Positions 8,542-63,983 are shown, counted from the first letter of the whole stretch. The stretch: DNA of 63,983 bases, filler included, from Tortispora ganteri (GCA_003707115.1; 17 parts of 17 records of this genome joined end to end with filler, not necessarily neighbours in it); one strand, 5' to 3'. Notes: generated from the letters alone by a model not told the origin. Numbers and translations are program-made.

Positions 8542-8642
8542 CNNNNNNNNNNNNNNNNNNNNNNNNNNNNNNNNNNNNNNNNNNNNTTAATTAATTAANN
8601 NNNNNNNNNNNNNNNNNNNNNNNNNNNNNNNNNNNNNNNNNN

Positions 8643-20809: not shown

Positions 20810-21450
20810 CCAGATGACGCTGAGCCAGATGACGCTGAGCCAGATGACGCTGAGCCAGATGACGCTGAGCCAGACGAAGTTGAGCCAGATGACGCCGATC
20901 CAGATGATAACGATCCAGATGACAACGATCCAGATGACAACGATCCAGATGACAACGATCCAGACGACAACGATCCAGATGACAACGATCCAGATGACAA
21001 CGATCCAGATGACAACGATCCAGATGAAGCAGAGCCAGACGACGCTGAGCCAGATGACGCAGAGCCAGACGAGGCAGAGCCAGATGAGGCTGAGCCAGAC
21101 GACAACGATCCAGATGAGGCTGAGCCAGACGATAACGATCCAGACGACAACGATCCAGATGACAACGATCCAGATGAAGCAGAGCCAGACGACGCTGAGC
21201 CAGATGATGCAGAGCCAGACGAAGCTAAACCAGACGAGGCAGAGCCAGACAAGGCTGAATTAGACGACGCTGAGCCAGATAACGCAGAGCCAGACGATGA
21301 GACTGCAGACGAGGCAGAGCCAGACGACGCTGAGCCAGATGACGCTGAACCAGACGAGGCAGAGCCAGACGATGAGACTGCAGACGAGGCAAAGCCAGAC
21401 GACGCTGAGCCAGATGACGCTGAACCAGACGAGGCAGAGCCAGACGATGA
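20810..21450 (-). repeat. 15-bp coding repeat (SSGSA/SSGSL)
   Basis: cagatgacgctgagc-type units. Confidence 0.95.
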
Positions 21451-22200
21451 AATTACAGACGACACTGATCCAAAAGCAGAATTAGAACGTGTTGCAGAGC
21501 TGAAGCCAAAGCTAGACATATATTCGTCAGATAAGGAAGAACCCGACTGAGTAGGCGTAGAGTTAGCCGAAGCAGACGAAAGAGTTGTGTCAGCTGAAGT
21601 TGTAGTTATTGAAGACGAAGCAGACCTAATCTCTGACGATAAAATCGAAGTAGGCAGAGAAGTGATCGTACGTGATCCGGCTGCCGGAGGCACCAGTGTT
21701 CCGGAAGGAGGAATTGTAGTTGTTATTATCACGGGTACTTCAATAGAGATATCTATATCTATCCTTATTGATATAGATACTTCCTCATAGTAAGACCAGA
21801 CATAGGTACAGTCATTAGTGACTAGAGGAGGAGAAGGGATACAGGATATAACAGTAGGAACGCACTGATTGCAATACCAACCTGTTGGGATAGTTTGATA
21901 GGGTGAGCATGAGTGATCATAAGCAGTTACCGGTGTAGCTTCAGGGACACCGCCTGCACCACCTGCAGTACCACCAGAAAAGACATTAGTGTATGCGAAA
22001 TCATTTGGATTTCCAGAGTCAGAGGTGTATCCACGTCCATAGACTGTCGTGGTAGTGACAACAGGAGGCTCGCAGACCAGGGTCTGCCACTCGGTGACGG
22101 TGCTCCATACGACGTTCTGCTGCTCTGGAATGGCAAGAGCTGCGGGATCTGCAGCCGGATGGGCTGCGCGCGCAGCGAGTGCATTCCACAAGTGAGGCAT
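20810..22200 (-). CDS. Divergent family member: Ala/Pro-rich extension, N-domain with Gly insertion, SSGS(A/L) stalk (3' partial)
   Basis: CEPP...GWYCNQCVP...PPLVTNDCTYVWSYYE motif. Confidence 0.85.
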
Positions 22201-33492: not shown

Positions 33493-33511
33493 TTACAAGG
33501 ACCTCGAAGAT

Positions 33512-33572
<61 letters not shown>

Positions 33573-35969: not shown

Positions 35970-36300
35970 GAAAGGATGATTCAACACGGGACTTATTGGG
36001 TTTGAATTTCAACCCCTTTTCTTTATGTTCTTGTTTTATGCGATCTAGTTCTGCCTGTGTTTTTGCCTTCTGCAGCCGGTCTCGCTCTCTGCTCTGCACG
36101 GCAGTTTCTCTATCACGTGCAATTTTGGATGCAATTTTTTCCTTATAATGACGTATTATGTTATCATTTTCTGAAGAGTAGTTTCTGATGTTCAATGCAA
36201 ATTCGAGATTGGTAAAACGGTGAAAGATAGAAACCGTTGATACACTGTAAGGATGCAGAGTGTTCAGTTTCTGCATTAATCGACTGTTAACTCGTAGCAT
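35970..36300 (-). CDS. Putative mitochondrial protein N-terminus (possibly Atp11-like; 3' partial)
   Basis: Presequence-like MLRVNSRL...RNYSS followed by a charged helix; conserved in the second haplotype. The Atp11 resemblance is weak. Confidence 0.5.
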
Positions 36301-37136
36301 TGTTAGTTGTTCCTGTTTAATTATTTGTATTAAAAAACAAAAGGCCACATGCAGTTGATATAGAAGAAAATTTTACAAGATAAGTCAGCGTTCAATAGAG
36401 AAAGCTGGTGGTAGGTTGAAAATCTAAGAGAGTAGTCAATTTGTTTTTGATCGTCAATATCACACGAGAACTCCCAAGGGGCTTGAATCAGGTCAATTGC
36501 CATTCTGAGGAATGTAGGCTAGGTGCATTCCTAGGATATTCAGTTTGCTGATTTACAGCAGTTTATTTCGGATTTCAAATCTTATAAACAAAAACAATAA
36601 AAAATATGCAAGGATCAATTGCAGGCCACTCGTGGCGAGAGATCGGGCTACATGCCTGGACAAACGCTTGTCGATAGCCATGCAGCTCGAATGTAGTAAT
36701 ACGAACATTAACGGAATACTAATAGCAACGCTTGTGCAAGACATATTAATGCGTATCGCTATATATTTGCTAAACTCGACGGTATAGTGGCAAGAATGGG
36801 ATCTAGAAGAAGCACCGTTGTCGTTACTGTCGTCTCGTATTAGTCAGTCAAATAGCTAATTGAATTTAATAAAGTATCTATTACAAATAGCGATCATATA
36901 GGTATGCGATAAAATTCGGTACAGGACGTAATTGTGTCTGAATTTGTGCAGACCTGCACAACTGTGCGAAAAGAGGCAAGAAAGAAGTTTCGTGCGCTTA
37001 AAGATGAGGGTGTGTCTTGGCACTATAGCAGAAGTATCAGTCTAGGTAAGCGTCACTGAAACGGGAATTGAATGCAGGTAACGCTGAATAAAAGGCGCTT
37101 TTTTTTAAATACACGCATTTTCTTCAGGCACACACG

Positions 37137-37559
37137 TTAGGCAGATCGCTCCTTGACCACAGGATTCCAAGCGGCATATTTGGGCTTGATGGTGTTGTAT
37201 GGCACATAAGCGGCAGGAGTTCCACTAGCAAATTGTTTCGTCTTTGGCACTGGATATTTGCGACGGGCAATGTTTTCAGGGGCTAGCTCTGTAGGAGCTT
37301 CCTTGAGTCCGTGAGCGAGCCACGCATGCCATGACTCTTCCAGTGTTGCAGGATCAGGATAGTACTCTTTGTATATGACCCATCGTGTACGTAAATGGAT
37401 CTCGTCTTCTTCAGCATTTTCGTAATATTTGTTTCCATATGAGTCAGTGCCGACCAATCGGCCGTACTTGATATCGCCAAGCTGGACGACTTCCTTGAAA
37501 GCTCTTACGGGGCCGATGCGAAACAGGTTTTTAACCTGTCGGATTAGCGAGGAGGACAT
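37137..37559 (-). CDS. NDUFA12: NADH:ubiquinone oxidoreductase subunit NDUFA12/N7BM
   Basis: GRLVGTDSYGNKYYEN, RTRWVIY, WHAWL, AYVPYNT...W. Confidence 0.93.
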   Translation of the reverse strand: MSSSLIRQVKNLFRIGPVRAFKEVVQLGDIKYGRLVGTDSYGNKYYENAEEDEIHLRTRWVIYKEYYPDPATLEESWHAWLAHGLKEAPTELAPENIARRKYPVPKTKQFASGTPAAYVPYNTIKPKYAAWNPVVKERSA

Positions 37560-38390
37560 TCTTTACAAACAAGAGTACTCAACTAGAACAACGTTTAGCA
37601 ATTATTCTCAGGTTTTCAGAAAACTCACTGATTGATCCTCTATTAGCAGAAGCTATGCGTTTGAAGCAGATCAGTTGGCTATTCTGGCAGGGTCGATGTC
37701 AGTTATTAAGCAAGCAGTAATGAATAGCTCTTGTTTTATTCGTAGAAGTTTTGATTGGACCAAAGGTGCTATAGCAACGAAGACATATAGTTACCACATA
37801 TGATATATTAAATTAAATTATTTATTAAAGTTGGGCACTTACTTGCCCCAAGTTATATAGTTGGCCGCAATATCTAAAATTCTAATCAAGGCTCATTATA
37901 GTTGACAATTGAACGGAAAATTTGTTAACTAGCAGGATCATAAGCATGATTGCAAGCAGGATCTTAAGTAGATTATACGGTATTGTGTGTTAGACCGATG
38001 GCTCAATACAGAAGCAGATTGGCAAGATATTACAGTTGGGCTCGACTGTTTGCTAGAGTGTGAAAATCAGCCTATATTCTTATCACCAACAAACGCTAAA
38101 ATCCTCAAAATCTTCGAAAGCTTCGTTAGAAAGTCTATTAAAGATTTCATATTTATTCTTCCGAATAGCAGCGAATGGGAAGTCAAAATGAAATCATTTA
38201 GACTGGGTTCCGATGTAAAGATAGTTTCATCTTTTGAGGTTGCTGTTACTTTAACTAGATGACACAGTCTTCTTATTGGCTCACTGCAGAGTCCTACACA
38301 AGAGATATAAGTCTACTCTGCAAGATGAGAAGATAATGGCGTCTATAAATTGTACGTTTATCAGCGCAATGGTGTGTTAGCCTAACAGTT

Positions 38391-39599
38391 ATGAAAACAG
38401 CTACATCTACAGTCACTGAAGTTGCGACAGTATTGTGTGTTCCTCCACTGGAAACCACTGTAGTGGACTATCGAGAATTCACATCCGGACAAGGAGTTGC
38501 AACAGTATACGGTGATAACTGCATTCCTGCCGTGAAGACCGTAGACGGATGGTACTGCCACAAATGTACCCCTGCGACAATCTCGTATGTACCTGCACCG
38601 CCACTTGTCAGCGATGCGCACACATACATTTGGTCGTACTACGAACAGGTATCTCTCTCTGTACATGTTGACGTCGATATCAGCTTCGAAATACCTGTCA
38701 TTGTCACTGAGACCGTCACCGAGCCTATCTCCGAAATATCCATCGCTTCCAGTGTACCAAATACGGCCAAGCCGCTTGGAGAAGGGTGTATTGCTATGCC
38801 TCCATATACGCCTTCTGTGGTATATGGAGCTCTTTACACTGAACAAGCCGACTGGTCTGCCGCAGACGTAGCTACTGGAGTGTATCGGAGTGGCAATCTC
38901 ACTACTTTTCCGTTAGGGGTTGATGAGTATAAACTTCATTTTGAATCTACAGATGTTGGACTGACAGAAATCATGATGTATGTCTTGATGGAGGAAGTAA
39001 GCGGATTCAGAGTCTCGTCTGCTGCGGACTCTGGTAATGTCCTGGCGTATGCCTTCATAGGAGAAGGCGCCATGGAATGTGGCAATATCCTCTCTATTGG
39101 CACTGGTGGCTACTCTGATCAGCAATCTTTATCTTATGACAGCGGTTACGTCGTATCTTTTGACTTCTCAGATTCAAAAGATCTCTATTATCCAGTGCGC
39201 TTTGTGTTCGTACAGGAATCGATGAACCGCAAACGTGCATTAGTTGGAGTCATTGCTGAAATCGAGCCAGTTAAACCAAATACTTGTTTGGATTGTGCGG
39301 ATGCAGTAGTCCCTTTGGTTGCCCTCGGAGCCCTAGCTGTGGCACCAGGTGGAAATTCTGTCACAAATACTGCTAGTGGTGAATCAAGATCTAGTTATAG
39401 TAGTTCTTATCCACCTATATCCTCAGATATAGAGTCGACTGCTTCTGACTCGTCTTTGGTTTCATTTGAAAGCTCGTCTTCTATTTCTTTCGGCATATCT
39501 TCTTTGTCATTGTTTTCGAACTCCTCATTGTCGCCATCGCCATCGCCATCGCCATCGCCTTCGCCTTCGCCATCGCCTTCGCCATCGCCTTCGCCATCG
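38391..39599 (+). CDS. Divergent family member (MKTAT type): N-domain, GLEYA/PA14-like domain, Ser/(SP)n (3' partial)
   Basis: GWYCHKCTP...PPLVSDAHTYIWSYYE; ATGVYR...EIMMYV...FIGEGAMECG...YYPVRFV. Confidence 0.87.
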
Positions 39600-41468: not shown

Positions 41469-43319
41469 CTAGAAAATTGATGTATCGAAGCCAATATAAT
41501 ACACATTCGGAATACCACTGTACGCCACGATTCGCAACGGCGTCCACACCCCGTACAAGTCCTCATGCAAATACCATATATATTGGCCAATGAACTGAAA
41601 TGCCCTTCCCCCACTTCCAATCGCCTCTATATTCCCGCACTTAATCCCACCTTCCCCGATATACACGTATCCTATGAAATCGCTTTCATCTGTATCATAA
41701 TTGACCATGATATTGAAAATGTAATTCGGTCCGTGAACATATACCAGCACCTCCGTCACTGCATTGCGATCATTGACGATTATTAGATCCTCAGAAATAT
41801 CCACGTCAACCTTGCTGGAATTCCCCATCCGGTACTTCCCTTCTGCTACTTGCATTTCAGTGTACTCCCAAAGGTCCACCGCCCATCCCCTCGCCAGCAG
41901 CTTCTGCGAAGGTTCGCACTGGCAAGCGTTAGACAACACTCCGCAGCTACTGCTACTGGACACGCTAGAACTCCACTTAGCTGAGCTGGATACGCTCCAA
42001 CCAACACTTGAACTCAAACTAGAACTCAAACTAGAACTAGAACTAGAACTAGAACTAGAACTAGAACTAGAACTAGAACTAGAACTAGAACTAGAACTAG
42101 AACTAGAACTAGAACTAGAACTCAGACTAGAACTAGAACTCAGACTAGAACTAGAACTCAGACTAGAACTGGAACTCAGACTAGAACTAGGACTGGAAGT
42201 AGAAATAGAACTAGAACTCAAACTAGAACTAGAACTAGAACTAGAACTAGAACTAGAACTAGAACTAGAACTAGAACTAGAACTAGAACTAGAACTAGAA
42301 CTAGAACTCAGACTAGAACTAGAACTCAGACTAGAACTAGAACTCAGACTAGAACTAGAACTCAGACTAGAACTGGAACTCAGACTAGAACTGGAACTCA
42401 GACTAGAACTAGGACTGGAAGTAGAAATAGAACTAGAACTCAGACTAGAACTAGAACTCAGACTAGAACTAGAACTCAGACTAGAACTAGAACTCAGACT
42501 AGAACTAGAACTCAGACTAGAACTAGAACTCAGACTAGAACTAGAACTCAGACTAGAACTATATGAGGAAATAGGATCAACTGGCTCCGGTGATCCACTT
42601 GCAGAACCATATACTGAAATAGCTATTGTCTCGCCGCTAATGGTAGTGAACATGACACTCACTGTCACAGAGACCCCGCCCTGCCGCTTGAATTGACCCG
42701 CCGATCCAAAGCCCGCAACAGGAATCACTATACGGATTGGGAACAAATACCCACCGGCAAAATCGACGGGAAAACTTGCCTTGAACCCATTCGAACTGTC
42801 TAGAGGGGCAGTGGCAGAAGAGCCAGAAGAACCAATAAGGTCCATGTTATCGCACCGCATAGCCAATTCGCCATCAAAGAGGTACGCGTAAGTATCTGCA
42901 AAGTTACTAGGATCCTGTCCCTGTACATCTACAAACGTAACGTCGGCTGATGGTTCAAGGTAGAAAAGGTACTCGACATAGCCCTGTTCGGATACCGATG
43001 CCGATATAGAGTTTGACGAGACTGTAGCGGCCACATTGTCTCGTTGGTAGTTCCTGTACTCACCGTTCTGGATATCGCTCGACGACAAGTCTACTGCGCC
43101 CTCGTATATAGCGGCAAATATTTTGCCTGCGCTGTAAGCAGCAGTAGTTGAGCATGCGTCTGCAGGCACAGTCGTGGGAGCTGTCGTTGGAACAGTTACT
43201 GTAGCTGTAGTGGGTGGCGTAGCGGGGTGAGTAGGCGGAGGCGTAGGTGCTATAGTCTCCGTGATAATGACTGGAATCTCAATAGAGACGTGCACGTCAA
43301 CCGACACGGACATGGACAC
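41469..43319 (-). CDS. Family member: end of N-domain, domain A, poly-Ser, variable domain (5' end on contig 8643-9024)
   Basis: Continuous ORF with both GLEYA/PA14-like domains. Confidence 0.9.
   Translation of the reverse strand: MSMSVSVDVHVSIEIPVIITETIAPTPPPTHPATPPTTATVTVPTTAPTTVPADACSTTAAYSAGKIFAAIYEGAVDLSSSDIQNGEYRNYQRDNVAATVSSNSISASVSEQGYVEYLFYLEPSADVTFVDVQGQDPSNFADTYAYLFDGELAMRCDNMDLIGSSGSSATAPLDSSNGFKASFPVDFAGGYLFPIRIVIPVAGFGSAGQFKRQGGVSVTVSVMFTTISGETIAISVYGSASGSPEPVDPISSYSSSLSSSSSLSSSSSLSSSSSLSSSSSLSSSSSLSSSSSLSSSSISTSSPSSSLSSSSSLSSSSSLSSSSSLSSSSSLSSSSSLSSSSSSSSSSSSSSSSSSSSSSSSSSSSSLSSSSISTSSPSSSLSSSSSLSSSSSLSSSSSLSSSSSSSSSSSSSSSSSSSSSSSSSSSSSSSLSSSLSSSVGWSVSSSAKWSSSVSSSSSCGVLSNACQCEPSQKLLARGWAVDLWEYTEMQVAEGKYRMGNSSKVDVDISEDLIIVNDRNAVTEVLVYVHGPNYIFNIMVNYDTDESDFIGYVYIGEGGIKCGNIEAIGSGGRAFQFIGQYIWYLHEDLYGVWTPLRIVAYSGIPNVYYIGFDTSIF
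42010..42560 (-). repeat. (AGTTCT)n / SSSSSL poly-Ser repeat
   Basis: Directly visible. Confidence 0.95.
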
Positions 43320-43420: not shown

Positions 43421-43751
43421 GAAAGGATGATTCAACACGGGACTTATTGGGTTTGAATTTCAACCCCTTTTCTTTATGTTCTTGTTTTATGCGATCTAGT
43501 TCTGCCTGTGTTTTTGCCTTCTGCAGCCGGTCTCGCTCTCTGCTCTGCACGGCAGTTTCTCTATCACGTGCAATTTTGGATGCAATTTTTTCCTTATAAT
43601 GACGTATTATGTTATCATTCTCTGAAGAGTAGTTTCTGATGTTCAATGCAAATTCGAGATTGGTAAAACGGTGAAAGATAGAAACCGTTGATACACTGTA
43701 AGGATGCAGAGTGTTCAGTTTCTGCATTAATCGACTGTCAACTCGTAGCAT
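43421..43751 (-). CDS. Second haplotype of 35970-36300
   Basis: Near-identical sequence. Confidence 0.5.
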
Positions 43752-44587
43752 TGTTAGTTGTTCCTGTTAAATTATTTGTATTAAAAAACAAAAGGCCTCA
43801 TGCAGTTGATATAGAAGAAAATTTTACAAGATAAGTCAGCGTTCAATACAGAAAGCTGGTGGTAGGTTGAAAATCTAAGAGAGTAGTCAATTTGTTTTTG
43901 ATCGTCAATATCACACGAGAACTCCCAAGGGGCTTGAATCAGGTCAATTGCCATTCTGAGGAATGTAGGCTAGGTGCATTCCTAAGATATTCAGTTTGCT
44001 GATTTACAGCAGTTTATTTCGGATTTCAAATCTTATAAACAAAAACAATAAAAAATATGCAAGGATCAATTGCAGGCCACTCGTGGCGAGAGATCGGGCT
44101 ACATGCCTGAACAAACGCTTGTCGATAGCCATGCAGCTCGAATGTAGTAATACGAACATTAACGGAATACTAATAGCAACGCTTGTGCAAGACATATTAA
44201 TGCGTATCGCTATATATTTGCTAAACTCGACGGTATAGTGGCAAGAATGGGATCTAGAAGAAGCACCGTTGTCGTTACTGTCGTCTCGTATTAGTCAGTC
44301 AAATAGCTAATTGAATTTAATAAAGTATCTATTACGAATAGCGATCATATAGGTATGCGATAAAATTCGGTACAGGACGTTATTGTGTCTGAATTTGTGC
44401 ATACCTGCACAACTGTGCGAAAAGAGGCAAGAAAGAAGTTTCGTGCGCTTAAAGATGAGGGTGTGTCTTGGCACTATAGCAGAAGTATCAGTCTAGGTAA
44501 GCGTCACTGAAACGGGAATTGAATGCAGGTAACGCTGAATAAGAGGCGCTTTTAATTTAATACACGCATTTTCTTCAGGCACACACG

Positions 44588-45010
44588 TTAGGCAGATCGC
44601 TCCTTGACCACAGGATTCCAAGCGGCATATTTGGGCTTGATGGTGTTGTATGGCACATAAGCGGCAGGAGTTCCACTAGCAAATTGTTTCGTCTTTGGCA
44701 CTGGATATTTGCGACGGGCGATGTTTTCAGGGGCTAGCTCTGTAGGAGCTTCTTTGAGTCCGTGAGCGAGCCACGCATGCCATGACTCTTCCAGTGTTGC
44801 AGGATCAGGATAGTACTCTTTGTATATGACCCATCGTGTACGTAAATGGATCTCGTCTTCTTCAGCATTTTCGTAATATTTGTTTCCATATGAGTCAGTG
44901 CCGACCAATCGGCCGTACTTGATATCGCCAAGCTGGACGACTTCCTTGAAAGCTCTTACGGGGCCGATGCGAAACAGGTTTTTAACCTGTCGGATTAGCG
45001 AGGAGGACAT
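44588..45010 (-). CDS. NDUFA12: NDUFA12/N7BM, second haplotype
   Basis: Protein identical to 37137-37559. Confidence 0.93.
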   Translation of the reverse strand: MSSSLIRQVKNLFRIGPVRAFKEVVQLGDIKYGRLVGTDSYGNKYYENAEEDEIHLRTRWVIYKEYYPDPATLEESWHAWLAHGLKEAPTELAPENIARRKYPVPKTKQFASGTPAAYVPYNTIKPKYAAWNPVVKERSA

Positions 45011-45841
45011 TCTTTACAAACAAGAGTACTCAACTAGAACAACGTTTAGCAATTATTCTCAGGTTTTCAGAAAACTCACTGATTGATCCTCTATTAGCAG
45101 AAGCTATGCGTTTGAAGCAGATCAGTTGGTTATTCTGGCAGGGTCGATGTCAGTTATTAAGCAAGCAGTAATGAATAGCTCTTGTTTTATTCGTAATAGT
45201 TTTGATTGGACCAAAGGTGCTATAGCAACGAAGACATATAGTTACCACATATGATACATTAAATTAAATTATTTATTAAAGTTGGGCACTTACTTGCCCC
45301 AAGGTATATAGTTGGCCGCAATATCTAAAATTCTAATCAAGGCTCATTATAGTTGACAATTGAACGGAAAATTTGTTAACTAGCAGGGTCATAAGCATGA
45401 TTGCAAGCAGGATCTTAAGTAGATTATACGGTATTGTGTGTTAGACCGATGGCTCAATACAGAAGCAGATTGGCAAGATATTACAGTTGGGCTCGACTGT
45501 TTGCGAGAGTGTGAAAATCAGCCTATATTCTTATCACCAACAAACGCTAAAATCCTCAAAATCTTCGAAAGCTTCGTTAGAAAGTCTATTAAAGATTTCA
45601 TATTTATTCTTCCGAATAGCAGCGAATGGGAAGTCAAAATGAAATCATTTAGACTGGGTTCCGATGTAAAGATAGTTTCATCTTTTGAGGTTGCTATTAC
45701 TTTAACTAGATGACACAGTCTTCTTATTGGCTCACTGCAGAGTCCTACACAAGAGATATAAGTCTACTCTGCAAGATGAGAAGATAATGGCGTCTATAAA
45801 TTGTACGTTTATCAGCGCAATGGTGTGTTAGCCTAACAGTT

Positions 45842-46992
45842 ATGAAAACAGCTACATCTACAGTCACTGAAGTTGCGACAGTATTGTGTGTTCCTCCACT
45901 GGAAACCACTGTAGTGGACTATCGAGAATTCACATCCGGACAAGGAGTTGCAACAGTATACGGTGATAACTGCATTCCTGCCGTGAAGACCGTAGACGGA
46001 TGGTACTGCCACAAATGTACCCCTGCGACAATCTCGTATGTACCTGCACCGCCACTTGTCAGCGATGCGCACACATACATTTGGTCGTACTACGAACAGG
46101 TATCTCTCTCTGTACATGTTGACGTCGATATCAGCTTCGAAATACCTGTCATTGTCACTGAGACCGTCACCGAGCCTATCTCCGAAACATCCATCGCTTC
46201 CAGTGTACCAAATACGGCCAAGCCGCTTGGAGAAGGGTGTATTGCTATGCCTCCATATACGCCTTCTGTGGTATATGGAGCTCTTTACACTGAACAAGCT
46301 GACTGGTCTGCCGCAGACGTAGCTACTGGAGTGTATCGGAGTGGCAATCTCACTACTTTTCCGTTAGGGGTTGATGAGTATAAACTTCATTTTGAATCTA
46401 CAGATGTTGGACTGACAGAAATCATGATGTATGTCTTGATGGAGGAAGTAAGCGGATTCAGAGTCTCGTCTGCTGCGGACTCTGGTAATGTCCTGGCGTA
46501 TGCCTTCATAGGAGAAGGCGCCATGGAATGTGGCAATATCCTCTCTATTGGCACTGGTGGCTACTCTGATCAGCAATATTTATCTTATGACAGCGGTTAC
46601 GTCGTATCTTTTGACTTCTCAGATTCAAAAGATCTCTATTATCCAGTGCGCTTTGTGTTCGTACAGGAATCGATGAACCGCAAACGTGCATTAGTTGGAG
46701 TCATTGCTGAAATCGAGCCAGTTAAACCAAATACTTGTTTGGATTGTGCGGATGCAGTAGTCCCTTTGGTTGCCCTCGGAGCCCTAGCTGTGGCACCAGG
46801 TGGAAATTCTGTCACAAATACTGCTAGTGGTGAATCAAGATCTAGTTATACTAGTTCTTATCCACCTATATCCTCAGATATAGAGTCGACTGCTTCTGAC
46901 TCGTCTTTGGTTTCATTTGAAAGCTCGTCTTCTATTTCTTTCGGCATATCTTCTTTGTCATTGTTTTCGAACTCCTCATTGTCGCCATCGCC
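45842..46992 (+). CDS. MKTAT-type family member, second haplotype (3' partial)
   Basis: Three aa differences from the 38391 copy. Confidence 0.87.
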
Positions 46993-47779: not shown

Positions 47780-49855
47780 CTAGAAGTTTTTGGGTACAGG
47801 TTTAATATCAGAAGACCCCTGAACACTAATAGTGGTATCAAATTCCAGCAGAGTTTCAAACCGACCCAGGACAGCCAGACTATCACTAGCGTGCTCTACT
47901 GATACATAACGCAAAGGATACCATAAATTAGCTTCCACATTAATCTCAAGTTCTGCACTTCCGGAACCAACAGATAATAGAGAAATCTGGACACTAATTT
48001 TTGCCGTGGTATTTGTACCACCTTCTCCTATTGCTCTCATATCTTTGCACGACATAGCTGAACCACCTAGGTATAAGTAACTATCGTGGTAATATGTCTG
48101 CGTAAACGTGATAAGAACACTTGCTGCGCTATTCACCGTTATGATATTGCTTACGTCATTAGTTCTTATATAGAACAAAGTCTCAGATATCAGCGCTGAC
48201 ATTGCAATAAGATCATTAGAATAATATGACAGCGAAGTGGAATCAATGTCAATATTCGACCGAGTGCCATTTAATTTCCTGTATTCTCCATTAGCAAAAT
48301 ATGCATCGTCCCAGTCCCTATATGGTGTGGAATAAGTCGCAAAGAAAGCCGCGCCTTGAGTGTAGTTTAGTGAGCTGCACGTGGTCTCAGGAAGTAGAGA
48401 AGAAGACGGAATGTAGACACTCGAGCTCGAAGCTACCGAAGATGAACTGATATCACTCGTACTAACAGTAGTCGATAAAGGAGGGGCAATCGAACTAGTA
48501 CTTGATTGGACAGAAGAGCTAGGATCAAAAGATGAACTAGATTCAATAGATGAACTAGGTTCAATAGATGAACTAGGATCAAAAGATGAACTAGGTTCAA
48601 TAGATGAACTAGGTTCAATAGACGAACTAGCTTCAATAGACGAACTAGGTTCAATAGACGAACTAGGATCAATAGACGAACTAGGTTCAATAGATGAACT
48701 AGATTCAATAGATGAACTAGATTCAATAGACGAACTAGATTCAATAGACGAACTAGGTTCAATAGACGAACTAGATTCAATAGATGAACTAGATTCAATA
48801 GATGAACCAGGATCAATAGACGAACTAGGTTCAATAGACGAACTAGATTCAATAGATGAACCAGGATCAAAAGATGAACTAGATTCAATAGATGAACTAG
48901 GTTCAATAGACGAATTAGGTTCAATAGACGAACTAGGTTCAATAGACGAACTAGGATCAATAGACGAACTAGGTTCAATAGACGAACTAGATTCAATAGA
49001 TGAACTAGATTCAACAGATGAACTAGATTCAATAGATGAACTAGATTCAATAGATGAACCAGGATCAAAAGATGAACTAGGATCAATAGATGAACTAGGA
49101 TCAAAAGACGAACTAGATTCAATAGACGAACTAGGTTCAATAGACGAATTAGGTTCAATAGACGAACTAGGTTCAATAGACGAACTAGGTTCAATAGACG
49201 AACTAGGTTCAATAGACGAACTAGGTTCCAATATCGATATAGTGCTAGAGCTAGTAGAAATACTAGAAGTGATGAGAGAACTGTTCAAGTAATGATTAAT
49301 AGATGAAAATAACGCCGAAACTGAACTATCTTCAGTAGATATCTGAGTGGATGATATTGTCGATAGTGAATTCGAACTCTCTGAAGATAAACCCTGAAAT
49401 AGAGAAGAAGAAGCAAAGAAAGAAGACTGGAATATAGGAGCAATGCTGCCCGTCGCTAAAGATGTAGGTTTATTAGACAAAAGCAAAGTAGATCGATATA
49501 TTGGAGCAACATTAGCAGTAGTGGAAGGAGCAGGAACGGTAGTAGGAATAGTAACGACGATCGGTAATTGGACACTAACAGTTGCGTCTATAGAAATAGA
49601 AACATCAATTTGCTCGTAGTAGCCCCAAACATACGTGTGTTCATTGCTGACAAGTGGAGGTTTTAGTACATAAGTGACAACCGTAGGATGACACTCATAA
49701 CAGTACCAGCCATCAACGTAACTGATAGTGCTTGTACAATCATCACCGTAGACGGTAGCTAATCCCTTAGTCGAGGAGAAAGAGCGAGCATATACTGTGG
49801 TAGTATCTACCGGGGGCTCACACAGATAAGTCTCAATTGCCGTGATTGTTTTCAT
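47780..49855 (-). CDS. Complete 691-aa family member: N-domain, SSI(E/D)(P/S)S stalk, C-terminal GLEYA/PA14-like domain
   Basis: CEPP...GWYCYEC...PPLVSNEHTYVW; ANGEYR...ETLFYI...YLGGSAMSC...IGEGG...WYPLRYV. No signal peptide or GPI tail. Confidence 0.9.
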   Translation of the reverse strand: MKTITAIETYLCEPPVDTTTVYARSFSSTKGLATVYGDDCTSTISYVDGWYCYECHPTVVTYVLKPPLVSNEHTYVWGYYEQIDVSISIDATVSVQLPIVVTIPTTVPAPSTTANVAPIYRSTLLLSNKPTSLATGSIAPIFQSSFFASSSLFQGLSSESSNSLSTISSTQISTEDSSVSALFSSINHYLNSSLITSSISTSSSTISILEPSSSIEPSSSIEPSSSIEPSSSIEPNSSIEPSSSIESSSSFDPSSSIDPSSSFDPGSSIESSSSIESSSSVESSSSIESSSSIEPSSSIDPSSSIEPSSSIEPNSSIEPSSSIESSSSFDPGSSIESSSSIEPSSSIDPGSSIESSSSIESSSSIEPSSSIESSSSIESSSSIESSSSIEPSSSIDPSSSIEPSSSIEASSSIEPSSSIEPSSSFDPSSSIEPSSSIESSSSFDPSSSVQSSTSSIAPPLSTTVSTSDISSSSVASSSSVYIPSSSLLPETTCSSLNYTQGAAFFATYSTPYRDWDDAYFANGEYRKLNGTRSNIDIDSTSLSYYSNDLIAMSALISETLFYIRTNDVSNIITVNSAASVLITFTQTYYHDSYLYLGGSAMSCKDMRAIGEGGTNTTAKISVQISLLSVGSGSAELEINVEANLWYPLRYVSVEHASDSLAVLGRFETLLEFDTTISVQGSSDIKPVPKNF
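48515..49228 (-). repeat. 18-bp coding repeat (SSIEPS-type), about 40 units
   Basis: tcaatagacgaactaggt-type units. Confidence 0.95.
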
Positions 49856-53975: not shown

Positions 53976-55865
53976 CANNNNNNNNNNNNNNNNNNNNNNN
54001 NNNNNNNNNNNNNNNNNNNNNTTAATTAATTAANNNNNNNNNNNNNNNNNNNNNNNNNNNNNNNNNNNNNNNNNNNNGCGAGTACGGCGTTCTTCAATAT
54101 CATATTTGGCTCAGCTCTGCGCTGGTACTCATTTTAGATTGTTTTTGTTATTGAACAGTACCATCGGCTGGCCGCGTGGAGTACGTTTTCGGCTTTACTG
54201 TACTCAGCGTAAAGGGTTCATTTTCAGGATATGATATCCATCCGGGCGTTTAGATTTACACTTATAGACATATTTAAAGATGCATGTTTGACTGAATGTG
54301 AATAAACAGGCATGCATTTGTCCATGTGAATTGCCAAAACGATCGATACTAAAATACGGTGTCTGGAAAGCCGACTGAACAAACAGTAGCTGAACTTAAA
54401 ATTTAATTAAATGAGCAAGAGGAGACTAGTGCGATAACCGCAGCTGTATTGCAAACTGCAAACTGCAAACTGCAAATTGCACCATGGCAACAATGCTCGC
54501 GGACCAGTAAATCATTGAAGCAGAGCCTAGAAGGTTGTATACTTTGTTGCTGAAACGACTGAACGGAATACAGGGTGCATCATAAATTAGGCAGTTAGTG
54601 GCACATGACAAATACCATCACAGTTGGTTTAACGGTAGATAAGGTTTTCTATTTTTGCCTTTCGGTAGATTCTACTATGAGCCTTGTTATTGGCGTATCC
54701 GACAAAAAAAAGGTTGAGGATTTAGTTAACTGTCTATAATCTCGCAGTATGGCGACTGTATAGCACGCGGGAGTATGCAGGATGATATGCTTGGAATCGA
54801 AGATGGGTACAATGACGTATCGAAAGCAGAGTATTGCAAAGCAGTGCAATTGCGTTACATGAAGAACAAGCAAGAACAAGCAAAGACAATAAGTGCAACA
54901 GAATTTCTCTAACAATATTTTCTCTTAATGAAGTTTTGAGCTAAGTTTACCAATTGGCCAAGAAATGAGTGCAGTGCTAAAATATCTTAAATCTCAGAAC
55001 ATCCAGGTATCAGTGAAGTTAGTTTACCGCAATTAGATTGCGAGCTATATCGTTGGTGTTGGTTTCCAAGACCGAAGAGACTGAAGAGATCAACAATGCA
55101 GAGCGTCTATGAAATAAGAGTGATCATATATGATCAGGAGAAAGAGTCTCCCTCAACGATTAATCTCATCAATGAACAATTATGTGATTGTGCGATTTGG
55201 AGTTACTTAGAGACTAACAGCAAAATAGGACGTGGCTTTAGAGATATTAACACTTACTTTAATAAAAATAAGCGCTCCGATAGGACCGAAGAGAGCAGTA
55301 TTTGTAAAATTACTTAATTACTGCAGCCTCAAGCATGTCCTTTTTCAGATTAAATGAATGATTTAAACCTTGAACGTGCATAAAACCTACATACTTATTG
55401 AGCAGAGCTTAGTTTGATTTTTATTTAAATTATGGAAAAAACTCATCCTTACTTGCCAACGGCCAGTGCACATCATTGACTGATCAATGATCAATGCCTT
55501 CCACGACATAACAATCTACAATGGATTTGCTTTTTCAGAATAGAACCAGTATCGACAACGCTGCAAGTTGCTGGATGGTACATGCACATTGTTTCCAGTT
55601 ACATTCTGCGGCATATCGAGCGAACGAGTTTGAGGCTGAAGTGTTTTAGCCTCAATGCTAATAACTCTAAATACGCAGCAACCAATCAAGGTCAACTTTG
55701 AATTTAGGCATTGTGACAGGATTCGGCGAGTAGAAGCATGTCAATAAGGCTAGGCCGAATAAGACAACGATAAGTTTTCATTGAAGACGGCAATAAGCTT
55801 TATATGGTTTCCGCTAAGATTTAAAAGAGGCACTGTGCGCCGCTTCTTGCCTTCAATCGCTCTCT

Positions 55866-57450
55866 ATGGTACAGACAATATACAGTACTATTGTAGAAAC
55901 GAACACGCTCATTTGCAGCCCACCTGTTGAAACTTCTACTGTCTACGGGCGCCTGTATACTTCTGAGTCTGGTACTACACGTGCGACTGTCTACGACAAC
56001 CAATGCGCGCCTTATGTGTCTACAGTTTCAGGCTGGTACTGCAACCAATGCACACCCGCTACGGTGACCTATGTACCTAGTCCGCCGCTCGTCAAAGACG
56101 ACTGCACCTATGTCTGGTCATACTACGAGTCCGTGTCTATGTCCGTGTCGGTTGACGTGCACGTTTCTATTGAGATTCCAGTTATTATCACGGAGACTAT
56201 AGTACCTCGGCGTCCGCCTACGCACCCCGCTACGCCACCCACCACAGCTACAGTAACTGTTCCAACGACAGCCCACACGACAGTGCCTGCAGACGCATGC
56301 TCAACCAGACCTGCCTACAGGGCAGGCGAAGTATTTGCCGCTATATTCGAGGGTGCGGTAGACTTGTTGTCGAGCGATATCCAGAACGGTGAGTACAGGA
56401 ACTACCAACGAGACAATGTGACCGCGAGAGTTTCGTCAAACTCTATATTGGCATCAGTATCGGAACAGGGCTATTTTGAGTACTTGTTTTACGTTGAACC
56501 ATCAGGCGACGTTGGGTTTGTAGATATACAGGCAAAGGATGCTAGTAACTTTGCAGATACTTATGCGTACGTGTACGAGGGTGAATTGGCCATGCGGTGC
56601 GATAACATGGAGCTTATTGGTACCTCTGGGACTTCTGGGACTGCCACTCTGGACAGTTCTAATGGGTTCAAGGCAAGTTTTCCGGTGGACTTTGACGGTG
56701 GATATTTGTTCCCAATTCGTATAGTGATTCCTGTTGCGGGCTTTGGATCGGCGGGTCAATTCAAGCGTCAGTCTGGAGTCTTTGTGACCGTGAGTGTGAT
56801 GTTCACTAGCATCAGTGGCGAGACAATAGCTATTTCAGTATATGGTTCTGCAAGTGGATCACCTGAGCCAGTTGAGCCTAGTTCTAGTCTGAGTCCTAGT
56901 TCTAGTTCTAGTTCTAGTTCTAGTTTGAGTTCTAGTTTGAGTTCTAGGTCTAGGTCTAGTTTGATTTCCAGTTCTAGTCTGAGTTCGAGTTTGAGTTCCA
57001 GTTCTAGTCTGAGTTCTAGTTTGAGTTCCAGTTCTAGTTTGAGTTCTAGTTCTAGTTCTAGTTTGAGTTCCAGTTCTAGTTCTAGTTTGAGTTCTAGTTT
57101 GAGTTCTAGTTTGAGTTCTAGTTTGAGTTCTAGTTTGAGTTCTAGTTTGAGTTCTAGTTTGAGTTCTAGTTTGAGTTCTAGTTCTAGTTCTAGTTTGAGT
57201 TCTAGTTCTAGTTCTAGTTTGAGTTCTAGTTTGAGTTCTAGTTTGAGTTCCAGTTCAAGTTCAAGTCCCAGTTCGAGTGTCAGTTCGAGCGTATCCAGCT
57301 CAGCTCAGTGGAGTTCTAGCGCCTCGAGTAGCAGCAGCTGTGGAGTGGTGTCAAACGCTTGCAAGTGCGAACCTTCACAGAGGCTGCTGGCAAGAAGGTG
57401 GGCGGTGAATCTTACGGAGTATACTGAAACGGAGGTAGCCGATGGGAAGT
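55866..57450 (+). CDS. Family member: N-domain, domain A, poly-Ser, start of variable domain (3' partial)
   Basis: Continuous ORF from MVQT to EVADGK. Confidence 0.9.
56878..57290 (+). repeat. AGT/TCT/TTG poly-Ser (SSSL) repeat
   Basis: Directly visible. Confidence 0.93.
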
Positions 57451-58396: not shown

Positions 58397-59362
58397 TACA
58401 TGTTAACTGATGCTATTTACGTGTATAAATGAGATTTATTGCGCTGCAGAATTACATATGATTAGTCTGTGCGTTTTTCTTCGTTTTTCTTCTTCATTCT
58501 GGCTTTGTTATAACTACAACCGGTTTAATAAAACCAGATTCACGATTTAAGTTACTAATATCCACAGATATTGAGTTTGAGTATTGTGTGTGGCATAAGA
58601 GGTTATTTTTACTTTAAATTAATATATATGATTTTTATGCAGGTCTGTTATGCATATTCGTGCTGCGAAACGCCTCAAAAGTGACATTTTACGTTGAGTT
58701 GAGAGATTCCGATTGCCTTAATTGTTTCGAAAAGTTTATTTCAATATAATTTAATACTCTTATTTTGATTCTTAGTTTTCTAGATTGGGTATTTTTTATG
58801 CAATTAAAAATATTCATTATTTTACTCCGCTTTGATCCGGCCAATCCTACCCTTTGAAAGTCATATTAGGCACTTAAAAAGATGACATAGGCAGCTTAAT
58901 TTCTTCTTATTAAAGATAACTTTTAGCTCAACCGCAGCAAACGCGGCTACTTGCATGTCCACGCGCTTCAAAGTACATCTATTTAGTAGCATAGATTATA
59001 ATATGTATTTTAAAATGCTCACTTGAATAATATTGATAGAACTGTTCAGGAGTCCCCCCCCTCCTTTCTCTACTCTCAATGTATTGCCTGTAGGACATAG
59101 CAGTATCCACTTCATAATCTTATCGGTATTAAAGTTCATAAAATCCTCATAGTTAAATGAAGATATTGTGGTTAACCATTGCATTTCCATCGGTTTACCC
59201 GCCGAAATCAGTGCAGTTACATTTCCGCAAATTAATAAGCTAATTAATTAAGAAAGTCCGATAAAATGCTATAATAGCACAAAACAGCTATTATATAGTC
59301 AAATATTAGCCACTCTCTTACATACCACTCAGTAACTATTCGGTCTTTTCTTGTTCACCAAA

Positions 59363-60912
59363 ATGTTGAGCACAGTAACTTTAACGGATACGTCTCTTTG
59401 TAAACCACCAACAACTACTACAACTGTCTATGAAAAGACTTATAGTAGCGCAAATGGTATAGTCACTGCTTATGATGATTATTGTATACCCGAGACAATA
59501 GTCGTCGATGACGTCTACTGTTGTGCCTGTACACCAACAGTTTTGACATATGTTCCTCAGGGCCCGCTAGTAAGCGAATCTCATACTTATGTATGGGATA
59601 TGTACCAAGAAATTTCGTTTTCCACATCTATTGCCTTCAATTTCACTATAGAGAAACCTTGTGCCGTTACCAAGTATGAAAATTATAATCCCAAACAGAC
59701 AACGCTAAGTTCTGTCGCAGGTATGACATATAGTCTGGTATCTAGCCATCATGCCAGTAGTATTACCAGCGAGATAAGCACTATAGTGAGCTCACCACTG
59801 GCGCATACCTTTGAGGATTTTGACATTTCAGTTAGAGAAGATTCGACGGCAGTTGAACCGACAACAGTCCCGGAAAGTCCAACTTCATACTTTTCAGGCA
59901 ATGACATTAGTACTGGAGATCCTTCCATTATTGTCGAGTCTTCCGGGATAATTACAGTACAGTCTTCTGTAGAGGTATCTTCGTCTGCGCAATTGCCATC
60001 ATATTACGCAGAATCTTCGTCAGTTTTGACTAATACTAGTAGTTCTAGCACTGTGCAAAACGACATGAGCAGCTCACATCCGACTACATCAGTGGATCTT
60101 TCATCTGATATTGAAGTAATAACGGCGATTCCCCCTGTAACAGCCACAAATGGCTTCCCTGGAGTTGTAACAGTGGTTTCTCCTGGAACGGGCCATAGCA
60201 TTAGTATCTCATCCTCGTCTTCACTATCGTCATCGCCTGGAGTTGAAACAGTGGTTTCTCCTGGAACGGGCCATAGCATTAGTATCTCATCCTCGTCTTC
60301 ACTATCGTCATCGTCTTACTCAGTATCTTTGTCAGATTCAACTGCCGGAACAAGCACAGATAGTTTCCCTGGAGTCATAACCATGATTCCTCCTTCTCCT
60401 GTCCCTCCTATCCCTACAAGCACAGATAGTTTCCCTGGAGTTATAACAATGATTCCTCCTGACCCTGTCCCTCCTATCCCTACTAGCTCGGATGGTTTCC
60501 CTGTTGTTATAACCATGATTCCTCCTTCTCCTGTCCCTCCTATCCCTACTAGCTCGGACGGTTTCCCTGGAGTTATAACAATGATTCCTCCTGCCCCTCC
60601 TGCAACAACAAGCTCGGATGGTTTCCCTGTTGTTATAACCATGATTCCTCCTTCTCCTGTCCCTCCTGTTCCTACTAGCTCGGACGGTTTCCCTGGAGTT
60701 ATAACAATGATTCCTCCTTCTCCTGTCCCTCCTATCCCTACTAGCTCGGATGGTTTCCCTGTTGTTATAACCATGATTCCTCCTTCTCCTGTCCCTCCTA
60801 TCCCTACTAGCTCGGACGGTTTCCCTGGAGTTATAACAATGATTCCTCCTTCTCCTGTCCCTCCTATCCCTACTAGCTCGGATGGTTTCCCTGTTGTTAT
60901 AACCATGATTCC
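59363..60912 (+). CDS. Most divergent family member: N-domain, Ser/Thr region, Pro-rich 22-aa repeats (3' partial)
   Basis: CKPP...YDDYCIP...YCCACTP...PLVSESHTYVW. Confidence 0.83.
60350..60912 (+). repeat. 66-bp coding repeat SSDGFP(G/V)VITMIPPSPVPPIPT
   Basis: About 8-9 units, alternating G/V variants. Confidence 0.95.
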
Positions 60913-61328: not shown

Positions 61329-63983
61329 ATGGTGCAGACAATATACAGTACTATTGTAGAAACGAACACGCTCATTTGCAGCCCACCTGTTGAGACTTCT
61401 ACTGTCTATGGGCGCTTGTACACTTCTGAGTCTGTTGCCACACGTGTGACTGTCTACGACGACCAATGCGCGCCTCATGTGTCTACAGTTTCAGGCTGGT
61501 ACTGCAACCAGTGCACACCCGCTACGGTGACATATGTACCTAGTCCGCCGCTCGTCAAAGACGACTGTACCTACGTCTGGTCATACTACGAGTCCGTGTC
61601 CATGTCGGTGTCGGTTGACGTGCACGTTTCTATTGAGATTCCAGTTATTATCACGGAGACTATAGTACCTCGGCGTCCGCCTACGCACCCCGCTACGCCA
61701 CCCACTACAGCTGCAGTAACTGTTCCAACGACAGCTCCCTCGACTGTGCCTGCAGACGCATGCTCAACTACACCTGCTTACAGCTCAGGCAAAGTATTTG
61801 CCGCTATATACGAGGGGGCAGTAGACTTGTCGTCGAGCGATATCCAGAACGGTGAATACAGGAATTACCAGCGAGACAATGTGGCCGCTACAGTCTCGTC
61901 AAACTCTATATCGGCATCAGTATCCGAACAGGGTTATGTCGAGTACCTTTTCTACCTTGAACCATCAGCTGACGTTGCGTTTGTAGATGTACAGGCACAG
62001 GATCCTAGTAACTTTGCAGATACTTACGCGTACCTCTTTGATGGCGAATTGGCTATGCGGTGCGATAACATGGACCTTATTGGTTCTTCTGGCTCTTCTG
62101 CCACTGCCCCTCTGGACAGTTCAAATGGGTTCAAAGCAAGTTTTCCCGTCGACTTTGCCGGTGGGTTCTTGTACCCAATCCGTATAGTCATTCCAGTTGC
62201 GGGCTTTGGATCGGCGGGTCAATTCAAGCGTCAAGCTGGGGTTTCCGTGATCGTGAGTATTGTGTTCACTACTACTAGTGGCGAGACAATATCCATATCT
62301 GTGTCTGCATCCACAAGTGGATCACCTGAGCCGGTTAATCCTATTTCTTCAGTTAGTTCAGCCTTATCGATTATATTGGAATCTAGTGTTTTTCCGGAGT
62401 CTTCTGTTGTTTCTAGCTCTTCAATTGCACCTAGCTCAGTTGCTGCTAGCTCATCAGTTGTTTCTAGCTCATCAGTTGTTTCTAGCTCATCAGTTGTTTC
62501 TAGCTCTCCAATTGCGCCTAGCTCAGTTGCTGCTAGCTCTCCAGTTGTTTCTAGCTCTCCAATTGCTGCTAGCTCATCAGTTGCTGCTAGCTCATCAGTT
62601 GCTGCTAGCTCATCAGTTGTTTTTAGCTCTTCAATTGTACCTAGCTCAATTGGGTCAGGATCCTCTGCTGCCTCCGGCTCATCAGTTGCTGCTAGCTCAT
62701 CAGTTGTTTCTAGCTCTTCAATTGCACCTAGCTCAGTTGCCTCAGGATCTGCTATTGTTTCCAGTTCTTTAGTTGCTGCTAGCTCAATTGCATCTAGATC
62801 CTCTATCGCTTCCGGGTCGTCTGCATCTTCCGACTCTAGCATCGGCTCGGGATCTTCAGCTTCCCCCAGCTCTTCTACCGCATTGGGCTCGAGTCTCGCC
62901 TCAAGTTCTAGCATGACTTCCGTTTCAACTACATTATCTTCTCCAGCAATTCCATCTGCCTCTAGCACTGCACTGAAATCCAGTTTTGGACGGAGCTCAT
63001 ATGGAAATTCTAGCACTAGTCAACTCTCTTCTGCCTCAAGTGCAGCAGCCGGATCCTCAGCTGCCTCTAGCTCCCCAGTTGCATCAGGATCTTCGGCTGC
63101 ACCCGGCTCTAGTGTTTTATCAGGATCTTCGACTGTATCAGGATCTTTAGCTGCGTCAGGATCTTCAGCTGCGTCAGGATCCTCAGCTGCGTCAGGATCC
63201 TCAGCTGCACTCAGCTCTAGTGTTGTATCAGGATCCTCAGCTGCGTCAGGATCCTCAGCTGTACCCAGCTCTAGTACTGTATCAGGATCTTCGGATGCGT
63301 CAGGATCCTCAGCTGCACCCAGCTCTAGTGTTGTATCAGGATCTTCGGCTGCGTCAGGATCATCAGCTGTACCCAGCTCTAGTGTTGTATCAGGATCTTC
63401 AGCTGCGTCAGGATCTTCGGCTGTACCCGGCTCTGGTGTTGTATCAGGCTCAGTTATTTCTACTGCTTCAAGTAATGCACTAAGTTCTAGTATTGGCTGG
63501 AGCTCATATGGTAATTCCAGCACTGGTCATATTGTTTCTGAATCGAGTTTTGCTCATGGATCAAGCGCCTTTTCTGATTCTAGTGTTTTCCCCTCTTCAT
63601 CGATTATAGGTTTGTCAAGCGTTCTATCTTCTTCATCAACTATAGGCAGCTCTAGTGGTTTGACGCCTTTGTCAAGTGCTGGAATATCTAGTGCCGGATC
63701 TCTGTCTTCGATATTGCCTAACTCGAGTGCCGGTCAAAGTTTGTCACCTAGTGCCTCGAGTGGTTTGGCATCTTCTGCAATAATCAGCAACTCAAGTGTG
63801 GTGTCGACCTCTTTCATAAGCTTCTCGAGTGCTGTCGTGTCAACTTCTGCATTTGGTAATTCAAGCATGTTGCCAAGTAGTTCAGTTGCTAGCTCGAGCG
63901 TTCTTGCGTCTTCGATGATCATAAGCAATTCAAGTGTTGTGCCAGCTTCATCGGTATTAAGCAACTGGAGCATCTTACCGACT
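61329..63983 (+). CDS. Long family member: N-domain, domain A, Ser/Ala/Gly stalk entering the NSS region (3' partial; absent from the ORF track because no stop is reached)
   Basis: ATG GTG CAG ACA at 61329; 885 codons to the window end. The last ~210 nt are homologous to the reverse complement of 4115-4325. Confidence 0.88.
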   Translation, partial: MVQTIYSTIVETNTLICSPPVETSTVYGRLYTSESVATRVTVYDDQCAPHVSTVSGWYCNQCTPATVTYVPSPPLVKDDCTYVWSYYESVSMSVSVDVHVSIEIPVIITETIVPRRPPTHPATPPTTAAVTVPTTAPSTVPADACSTTPAYSSGKVFAAIYEGAVDLSSSDIQNGEYRNYQRDNVAATVSSNSISASVSEQGYVEYLFYLEPSADVAFVDVQAQDPSNFADTYAYLFDGELAMRCDNMDLIGSSGSSATAPLDSSNGFKASFPVDFAGGFLYPIRIVIPVAGFGSAGQFKRQAGVSVIVSIVFTTTSGETISISVSASTSGSPEPVNPISSVSSALSIILESSVFPESSVVSSSSIAPSSVAASSSVVSSSSVVSSSSVVSSSPIAPSSVAASSPVVSSSPIAASSSVAASSSVAASSSVVFSSSIVPSSIGSGSSAASGSSVAASSSVVSSSSIAPSSVASGSAIVSSSLVAASSIASRSSIASGSSASSDSSIGSGSSASPSSSTALGSSLASSSSMTSVSTTLSSPAIPSASSTALKSSFGRSSYGNSSTSQLSSASSAAAGSSAASSSPVASGSSAAPGSSVLSGSSTVSGSLAASGSSAASGSSAASGSSAALSSSVVSGSSAASGSSAVPSSSTVSGSSDASGSSAAPSSSVVSGSSAASGSSAVPSSSVVSGSSAASGSSAVPGSGVVSGSVISTASSNALSSSIGWSSYGNSSTGHIVSESSFAHGSSAFSDSSVFPSSSIIGLSSVLSSSSTIGSSSGLTPLSSAGISSAGSLSSILPNSSAGQSLSPSASSGLASSAIISNSSVVSTSFISFSSAVVSTSAFGNSSMLPSSSVASSSVLASSMIISNSSVVPASSVLSNWSILPT

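Follow-up and report, generated by a model that had tools for sequence, protein, structure and literature searches.

The locus considered here raises the question of what kind of domain opens a family of lectin-on-a-stalk proteins in the yeast Tortispora ganteri, in which the place of a signal peptide is taken by a module of about 105 residues. The window, i.e. the whole stretch of DNA that was analysed (63,983 bases), consists of 17 contigs arranged in descending size order, about 4.3 to 3.4 kb each, which are joined by 100-base spacers composed of 44 N, TTAATTAATTAA and another 44 N (e.g. 4326-4425 and 8543-8642). Because of this joining, the gene order across spacers is meaningless and no adjacency is shown for genes of different contigs, and the apparent cluster of family genes is in part an artefact. 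The short contigs are enriched for one repeat-bearing gene family because the assembly broke within the Ser-rich repeats. True tandem pairs are present on four contigs, where the 3' end of a family gene lies 1.2-1.8 kb upstream of the next start on the same strand. Two contigs, 35970-39599 and 43421-46992, share their first 20 bases and encode the same family protein with three residue differences in about 400; they may represent alleles or a very recent duplication. Elsewhere, the window holds a copia-type retrotransposon gag-pol fragment (16863-19089, minus strand, with GAG-pre-integrase, Pol beta-barrel and integrase core) that is cut by a contig end, and a 47-base tandem repeat at a contig start (24642-25053, 8.8 copies, 94% matches).

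The target open reading frame (ORF) begins at 55866 on the plus strand of the contig 54078-57450 and runs off the contig end at 57450. The existence of a conserved module at its N-terminus is confirmed, and the motifs that the initial annotation had described for a domain of about 105 residues are present within residues 1-111 (55866-56198), with position 80 of the target located within P-P-L-V-x-x-x-C80-T-Y-V-W. The elements of the module are as follows.

55866 to 56198, plus strand: N-terminal module of the target gene, residues 1-111, from the translation
55914 to 55916, plus strand: Cys17 codon, C-x-P-P motif; Cys in 16 of 17 sequences family-wide, Ser once
56004 to 56006, plus strand: Cys47 codon, invariant in 17 of 17
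56040 to 56051, plus strand: Cys59-x-x-Cys62 in a W-Y-C-x-x-C-x-P motif, both Cys in 17 of 17
56103 to 56105, plus strand: variable position 80, TGC for Cys in the target; His, Tyr, Ser, Gln or a gap elsewhere
56133 to 56177, plus strand: alternating hydrophobic/polar stretch VSMSVSVDVHVSIEI, residues 90-104, probably a beta-hairpin
56178 to 56192, plus strand: invariant Pro105 followed by an I/V-rich segment, P-V-I-I-T, as judged from the 17-sequence alignment

Congruent with the earlier claim that the module opens every family member with a visible 5' end, it was found at the N-terminus of all 12 family genes in the window whose 5' end lies inside a contig (starts at 800, 5059, 9024, 13387, 22200 and 49855 on the minus strand, and at 31485, 38391, 45842, 55866, 59351 and 61329 on the plus strand). 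A 13th copy, in the minus-strand ORF 41469-43313, is incomplete because its contig ends within the module, and the 5' side of every remaining family ORF runs off a contig end. Copies other than that of the target, including the one complete gene, are listed below.

471 to 800, minus strand: module copy of a truncated gene, Tyr at position 80
4730 to 5059, minus strand: module copy
8695 to 9024, minus strand: module copy
13058 to 13387, minus strand: module copy
21727 to 22200, minus strand: module copy extended by 26 residues at the N-terminus and with 24 residues inserted in a loop
31485 to 31814, plus strand: module copy
38391 to 38717, plus strand: module copy, His at position 80
45842 to 46168, plus strand: module copy, near-duplicate of the copy at 38391
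47780 to 49855, minus strand: the only complete family gene on one contig, 691 residues, with module, SSSIEP stalk and C-terminal GLEYA-like domain
59351 to 59683, plus strand: module copy, His at position 80; the start is either the TTG at 59351 or the ATG at 59363
61329 to 61658, plus strand: module copy

Two of these genes deviate from the others. The truncated gene at 135-800 (minus strand, 221 residues) has an additional Cys at residue 39, besides its Tyr at position 80, and displays the highest dN/dS among the pairs compared (0.36, against the target); it is probably decaying. About 780 nt upstream of it lies a small ORF that resembles the remnant of a GLEYA-like C-terminus. The paralogue 20810-22200 (minus strand) carries an Ala/Pro-rich stretch of 26 residues ahead of the module and a Gly-rich loop of 24 residues inserted after residue 36, and the module hence accepts both an N-terminal extension and an insertion at this point.

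Relatives were sought with a module profile built from seven window copies, against 1.84 billion representative proteins at E<=0.001. The search returned 14 matches, namely 11 genuine relatives (E 2e-42 to 1e-06) and three repeat proteins that are unrelated to the module. When the ten best-scoring relatives were looked up, each proved to be a hypothetical protein of Tortispora caseinolytica NRRL Y-17796, and a word-based search together with a cluster look-up contributed two further proteins of the same strain. For metagenome contigs, the pattern of the 7-sequence alignment gave 49 matches, none of which was confirmed. Thus, the databases searched contain the module in Tortispora proteins only. 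Seven recent paralogues differ by dS of 0.08-0.43 and are therefore separate genes, not duplicates created by the assembly; all 21 of their pairs have dN/dS of 0.04-0.36, and the module is under strong purifying selection in this set. Together, the T. caseinolytica matches of the profile, at E 1e-21 to 2e-42, and the dN/dS of the seven paralogues demonstrate that the module is not a product of chance.

Comparison between the species was possible for the 691-residue window protein and P0001 of T. caseinolytica, which share 75% identity over the first 196 residues, about 87% over the module as counted in the alignment, and 52% over the last 333 aligned residues, covering the end of the stalk and the GLEYA-like domain. 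As far as this alignment tells, no other part of the protein is as well conserved between the two species as the module. The 75% identity also marks the yeast behind the window as closely related to T. caseinolytica. Some T. caseinolytica gene models have features of their own. In P0016 and P0008 the module is internal, in frame after the end of a GLEYA-like domain, with Val in place of its usual first Met in P0016; these models represent either fused tandem genes or annotation read-through. P0010 and P0002 have acidic or charged C-terminal regions that are not Ser-rich in place of the stalk, and P0010 is devoid of Cys17, with Ser and Thr together reaching only 12%. By composition, both look more like intracellular proteins.

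The family alignment refines several of the features first noticed. Cys17, Cys47, Cys59 and Cys62 are indeed invariant in all 12 window copies. In the family alignment of 17 sequences the invariant positions are C47, C59, C62, W84, Y87 and P105, and C17 is found in 16 of 17, being Ser in P0010, so that the claim of four invariant Cys stands for the window and is reduced to three family-wide. The fifth position, described as Cys or His with Tyr in the truncated copy, displays all of these residues and more: across the 17 sequences position 80 is Cys in four, His in nine, Ser in two, Gln in one and a gap in one, with Tyr in the truncated window copy. The codons used in the window are TGY, TAC and CAY, and since single-base changes connect them and the intermediate Tyr does occur, the exchange between Cys and His is explicable without a metal site. 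Moreover, a site at which Ser, Gln and a gap are all tolerated makes a poor metal ligand candidate, and the proposal that the Cys/His exchange hints at metal binding is weakened on both grounds. As to the alternating stretch, most of the 17 sequences have V/I/L/M/F at even positions 90-104; the odd ones hold S/T/D/E, among which Ser93 is shared by 16 sequences and Glu/Gln103 by all 17. The alternation at the end of the module is thus real and conserved, as proposed. In two of the 17, a pair of extra residues is inserted between positions 100 and 101, which argues for a turn at this point, and a hairpin is therefore suggested rather than the single 15-residue strand that had been envisaged.

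Next, we considered whether the module corresponds to a known domain, the initial annotation having called it unrecognised. In Pfam the target module has no match at E<=1, and across 17 of 17 family members nothing was found at E<=10 except one stray DUF (E 0.13) in one of the 17; for toxin or aerolysin / ETX-MTX2 families the count is 0 of 17 at the same cut-off. The module profile against the sequences of solved structures retrieved a miniaturised rubredoxin as its best match, at a non-significant E of 2.6, where the alignment covers Y-x-x-x-C...G-x-Y-C-x-x-C. The ESM Atlas returned no usable match to the module. AlphaFold2 yielded all-beta models that are poor overall, with mean pLDDT 52.6 from seven sequences and 60.4 from 17, the sole confident part being a hairpin at 24-43/49-67 (pLDDT 82-86). 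With these low-confidence models, the Foldseek comparison that had been proposed as a check was run and recovered no known fold among solved structures at E<=0.001. VIA-align of the better model (m48cddd1ee8b0) against 48,161 representative chains placed aerolysin-fold proteins at ranks 1-7 and at rank 42, over 89-109 of 111 residues, with Z 2.1-4.2 (3.2-4.2 for ranks 1-7) and rmsd 4.2-5.1 A, where unrelated models typically reach Z 7-8. The first model (m0bcdda787b21) gave no match at Z>=2, and the apparent likeness to aerolysin is a lead only. Prediction of a complex of two module copies ended with a score of 0.00, an uncertain fold and the alignment unused, and has no bearing on oligomerisation. 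Aggregated, the absence of a Pfam match, the E of 2.6 for the best solved-structure sequence and the lack of a usable fold match agree with the view of the domain as unrecognised.

Downstream of the module, the family follows a layout in which the module is often followed by a GLEYA-like domain, then by a variable Ser/Pro-rich repeat stalk, and finally by a C-terminal GLEYA-like lectin domain. In the target this corresponds to the following elements.

56283 to 56870, plus strand: first GLEYA-like lectin domain of the target, BLASTP E 8e-16 to ORF 33493-35835
56880 to 57266, plus strand: Ser-rich stalk of the target, a 12-base tandem repeat in 32.8 copies
57330 to 57450, plus strand: start of the C-terminal GLEYA-like domain of the target, cut by the contig end

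Complete homologues of the C-terminal domain of the target are found in ORFs 41469-43313 and 6901-7881. Six stalk types were counted behind the module (SSSSL-type, irregular S/A/V, SPSP, the SSSIEP hexamer, a 22-residue Pro-rich unit and the SGSAS pentamer), in line with the reported fusion to at least five unrelated stalks. The assignment to GLEYA builds on ORF 33493-35835, which matches the Pfam family (PF10528) at E 5e-09 with 36.8 bits against a cut-off of 26.2; when isolated domains were searched, three of nine matched at E<=1 and the best reached 26.0 bits, just below the cut-off. The GLEYA-like domains of the target are tied to GLEYA solely via the BLASTP match to this ORF (E 8e-16), and a second BLASTP link for the downstream domains has E 2e-13. 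A weak profile match connects the lectin domain to the PA14 domain of Cea1 (E 0.21). With the lectin domain alone, the word-based protein search found only two T. caseinolytica proteins, and a protein search with a 9-sequence lectin profile found nothing, leaving no relatives from outside Tortispora to show what the module replaced. A hydrophobic GPI-type tail was detected at none of the complete C-termini, which end inside or just after the lectin domain, in line with the earlier proposal of an anchor in place of a GPI. Because the lectin domain is C-terminal and no hydrophobic tail follows, the N-terminal end is the only constant non-lectin part of these proteins. The total number of Cys is even in nine of 13 proteins (the 12 T. 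caseinolytica models and the one complete window gene); these counts would fit disulfide pairing, and are not proof of it.

Does a leader precede the module? A crude Kyte-Doolittle scan of the first 30 residues detected no hydrophobic core of a signal peptide in 11 of 11 copies, the 9-residue maximum being 0.88-1.87. Every ATG in the 11 copies is preceded by an in-frame stop 18-51 nt upstream, and none has an upstream ATG with a hydrophobic peptide and a splice donor within up to 1500 nt. A branch-point-like motif near the ATG is absent in 10 of the 11. Immediately upstream of the ATG the paralogues differ by 1-nt indels, and this stretch is therefore non-coding. An upstream in-frame peptide of the target, A-L-C-A-A-S-C-L-Q-S-L-S, was considered as a leader with a non-AUG start and rejected in view of the 1-nt indels and an overlap with the following TATA-like motif.

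55820 to 55827, plus strand: TATA-like motif about 45 nt ahead of the start codon, position kept in six paralogues

This motif would act as a promoter. Among six paralogues (55366-55865 in the target and its equivalents in five others), about 300 nt before the ATG are roughly 70% conserved and contain short conserved upstream ORFs as well as the TATA-like motif, a similarity that suggests a shared promoter and co-regulation of the six. In nine of the 12 T. caseinolytica gene models the module likewise lies within the first few residues; the exceptions are P0010, with a non-hydrophobic extension of 21 residues, and P0008 and P0016, which are read through from the upstream gene. Since GLEYA adhesins have a typical signal peptide according to the available part of PMC8621652, and none was found here, a location of the Tortispora proteins at the surface is unproven. 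For the same lack of a signal peptide, metal binding by the four conserved Cys becomes somewhat more plausible.

The module is thus real, conserved and under purifying selection, has no detectable known relative, and is carried by proteins in which neither a signal peptide nor a GPI-type tail was detected. What we tentatively favor, at a little under an even chance, is that it is a genus-restricted, all-beta domain, about 105 residues long and with Cys conserved at three to four positions, forming the constant N-terminal end of the lectin-on-a-stalk family and serving as a structural foot for anchoring or assembly. A foot of this sort, putatively at the cell surface, would be in keeping with the position of the module, with its many stalk partners, with its being better conserved than the lectin domain and with Cys counts that are even in most proteins, and the architecture as a whole would also suit an anchor. 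Its cysteines would stabilise a compact beta domain, behind which an amphipathic beta-hairpin and then the invariant Pro with its I/V-rich segment would follow; the whole would keep the molecule in place, or assemble it, at the end that lies opposite to the C-terminal lectin head. The main difficulty for a foot of this kind is that no signal peptide was found; the charged tails of P0002 and P0010 and the mean pLDDT of 60.4 of the model also count against it. That the module is in addition a self-sufficient device, taking care of both export and anchoring so that the lectin-stalk proteins reach and stay at the surface without signal peptide or GPI anchor by means of this conserved beta/Cys module, we consider quite improbable.

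Many fungal lectins are leaderless and cytoplasmic, and the proteins could alternatively be of this type, with C17, C47 and C59-x-x-C62 holding a zinc ion instead of forming disulfides. Signal peptide, candidate 5' exon and hydrophobic tail were all not found, one CxxC and two single Cys are all highly conserved, the only solved-structure sequence matched, at the non-significant E of 2.6, is a rubredoxin, and the tails of P0010 and P0002 are charged rather than stalk-like. We nevertheless regard such a zinc site in the cytoplasm as unlikely, as there is a single CxxC knuckle, the residue aligned to the missing Cys being Asp in 12 and Gly in five of 17 sequences, and as C17 is replaced by Ser in P0010. 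In the low-confidence AlphaFold2 model C47 is predicted at the tip of the hairpin, about 12 residues along the strand from C59/C62, the total Cys is even in most proteins (nine of 13), and paired-Cys lectin domains of the GLEYA/PA14 type with long Ser-rich stalks are typical of extracellular proteins, judging from the accessible text of PMC8621652. The opposite scenario, in which a signal peptide was overlooked, encoded by a distant or unusual 5' exon or read from a non-AUG start, would make these proteins ordinary secreted adhesins whose first mature domain is the module. In several copies the ATG is indeed immediately preceded or overlapped by pyrimidine-rich tracts that end in AG, and the remaining architecture is that of a secreted GLEYA adhesin; yet no ATG with hydrophobic peptide and donor exists within up to 1500 nt, 10 of 11 copies are without a branch-point-like motif, the 1-nt indels between paralogues make the stretch before the ATG non-coding, a TATA-like motif occupies a position about 45 nt before the ATG in six paralogues, and the module lies within the first few residues in nine of 12 T. 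caseinolytica models. An overlooked leader is distinctly unlikely on these grounds.

Two further proposals assign an active function to the module. As a second binding or self-association head, it would not anchor the protein but mediate contacts, e.g. homotypic ones between cells or head-to-tail ones to the lectin domains. This would be supported by its rank as the most conserved part of the protein and by the I/V/T-rich beta segment after Pro105, which is reminiscent of aggregation-prone segments in Als and Flo adhesins. The binding heads of adhesins would, however, usually be expected to diverge faster than this module does, and we judge the proposal very unlikely. A small aerolysin-like, beta-pore-forming or otherwise membrane-inserting element, with the alternating stretch as a membrane hairpin and the GLEYA-like domains aiming it at a target, would account for the aerolysin-fold proteins at VIA-align ranks 1-7 and 42 over 89-109 of 111 residues, for the conserved amphipathic alternation and for the leader not being found. 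Known aerolysin-type modules are, though, about twice the size of the present one, the arms of a hairpin would be about 7-8 residues and thereby short for a membrane span, and no Pfam toxin family appears at E<=10. Moreover, Z is only 2.1-4.2 at rmsd 4.2-5.1 A, in a range where unrelated models typically reach Z 7-8, and neither the other model (at Z>=2) nor Foldseek (at E<=0.001) provided a match, rendering a pore-forming role extremely unlikely.

How does the family relate to known systems? The textbook yeast adhesin has a signal peptide, a binding head, a stalk and a GPI anchor. For Flo/Epa proteins this order is signal peptide, N-terminal lectin, stalk and GPI anchor, as set out in the available part of PMC8621652. 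The Tortispora family has in common with these PA14-GLEYA adhesins a lectin domain, a Ser/Thr-rich stalk and an organisation in multigene families with tandem copies; on the other hand its order is reversed relative to that described in the portion of PMC8621652 at hand, and signal peptide and GPI tail were not found. The closer counterparts are GLEYA adhesins of the fission-yeast type, with a C-terminal lectin domain (Pfam PF10528; Linder and Gustafsson 2008, as cited in the accessible part of PMC8621652), for which that part of the source reports a typical signal peptide and a lack of GPI signals. The two groups share the GLEYA-like lectin at the C-terminal end, a Ser-rich tandem-repeat stalk and the absence of a GPI-type tail, as far as this source extends, and the Ser/Thr-rich tandem-repeat stalk of GLEYA-type adhesins is present in the Tortispora family. 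Unlike the GLEYA adhesins as portrayed there, the Tortispora proteins start with the 105-residue module and have no detected signal peptide, and many members carry an extra GLEYA-like domain directly after the module. The module itself recalls zinc-ribbon and rubredoxin knuckles, having C-x-x-C beside aromatics and two further conserved Cys, but those have two CxxC knuckles and the module has one, with Asp or Gly as the first ligand of the second knuckle. Similarly, an elongated beta-hairpin in the predicted models, a Ser-rich alternating stretch and the logic of lectin plus module would resemble aerolysin-fold modules, e.g. the pore module of the Laetiporus sulphureus lectin (1w3a); in contrast to these, the module is much smaller, with Z 4.2 at best that was not repeated with the other model, and carries no sequence signal.

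In the literature searched, no paper links Tortispora with adhesins, with the proviso that supplementary tables, which lie outside the search, might list the genes among orthogroups. In the available text of PMC11449361, "adhes" and "flocculin" each occur 0 times and no such family is mentioned. Thus, the family is of a known kind, the GLEYA-type lectin-stalk proteins, and what is new is that a genus-restricted N-terminal module, so far undescribed, stands where the signal peptide would be. The rule of a GPI anchor is already broken by fission-yeast-type GLEYA adhesins, whose retention in the wall is left unexplained in the accessible portion of PMC8621652. The reach of the finding is limited, as the module is so far confined to one little-studied genus of cactus-associated yeasts. 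Under either reading of where the proteins reside, the module is a small defined domain that is open to expression and testing. Should the proteins be at the surface, it would be a candidate for a novel route of wall protein export or anchoring; otherwise, the genus would harbor an unnoticed family of cytoplasmic lectin-like proteins.
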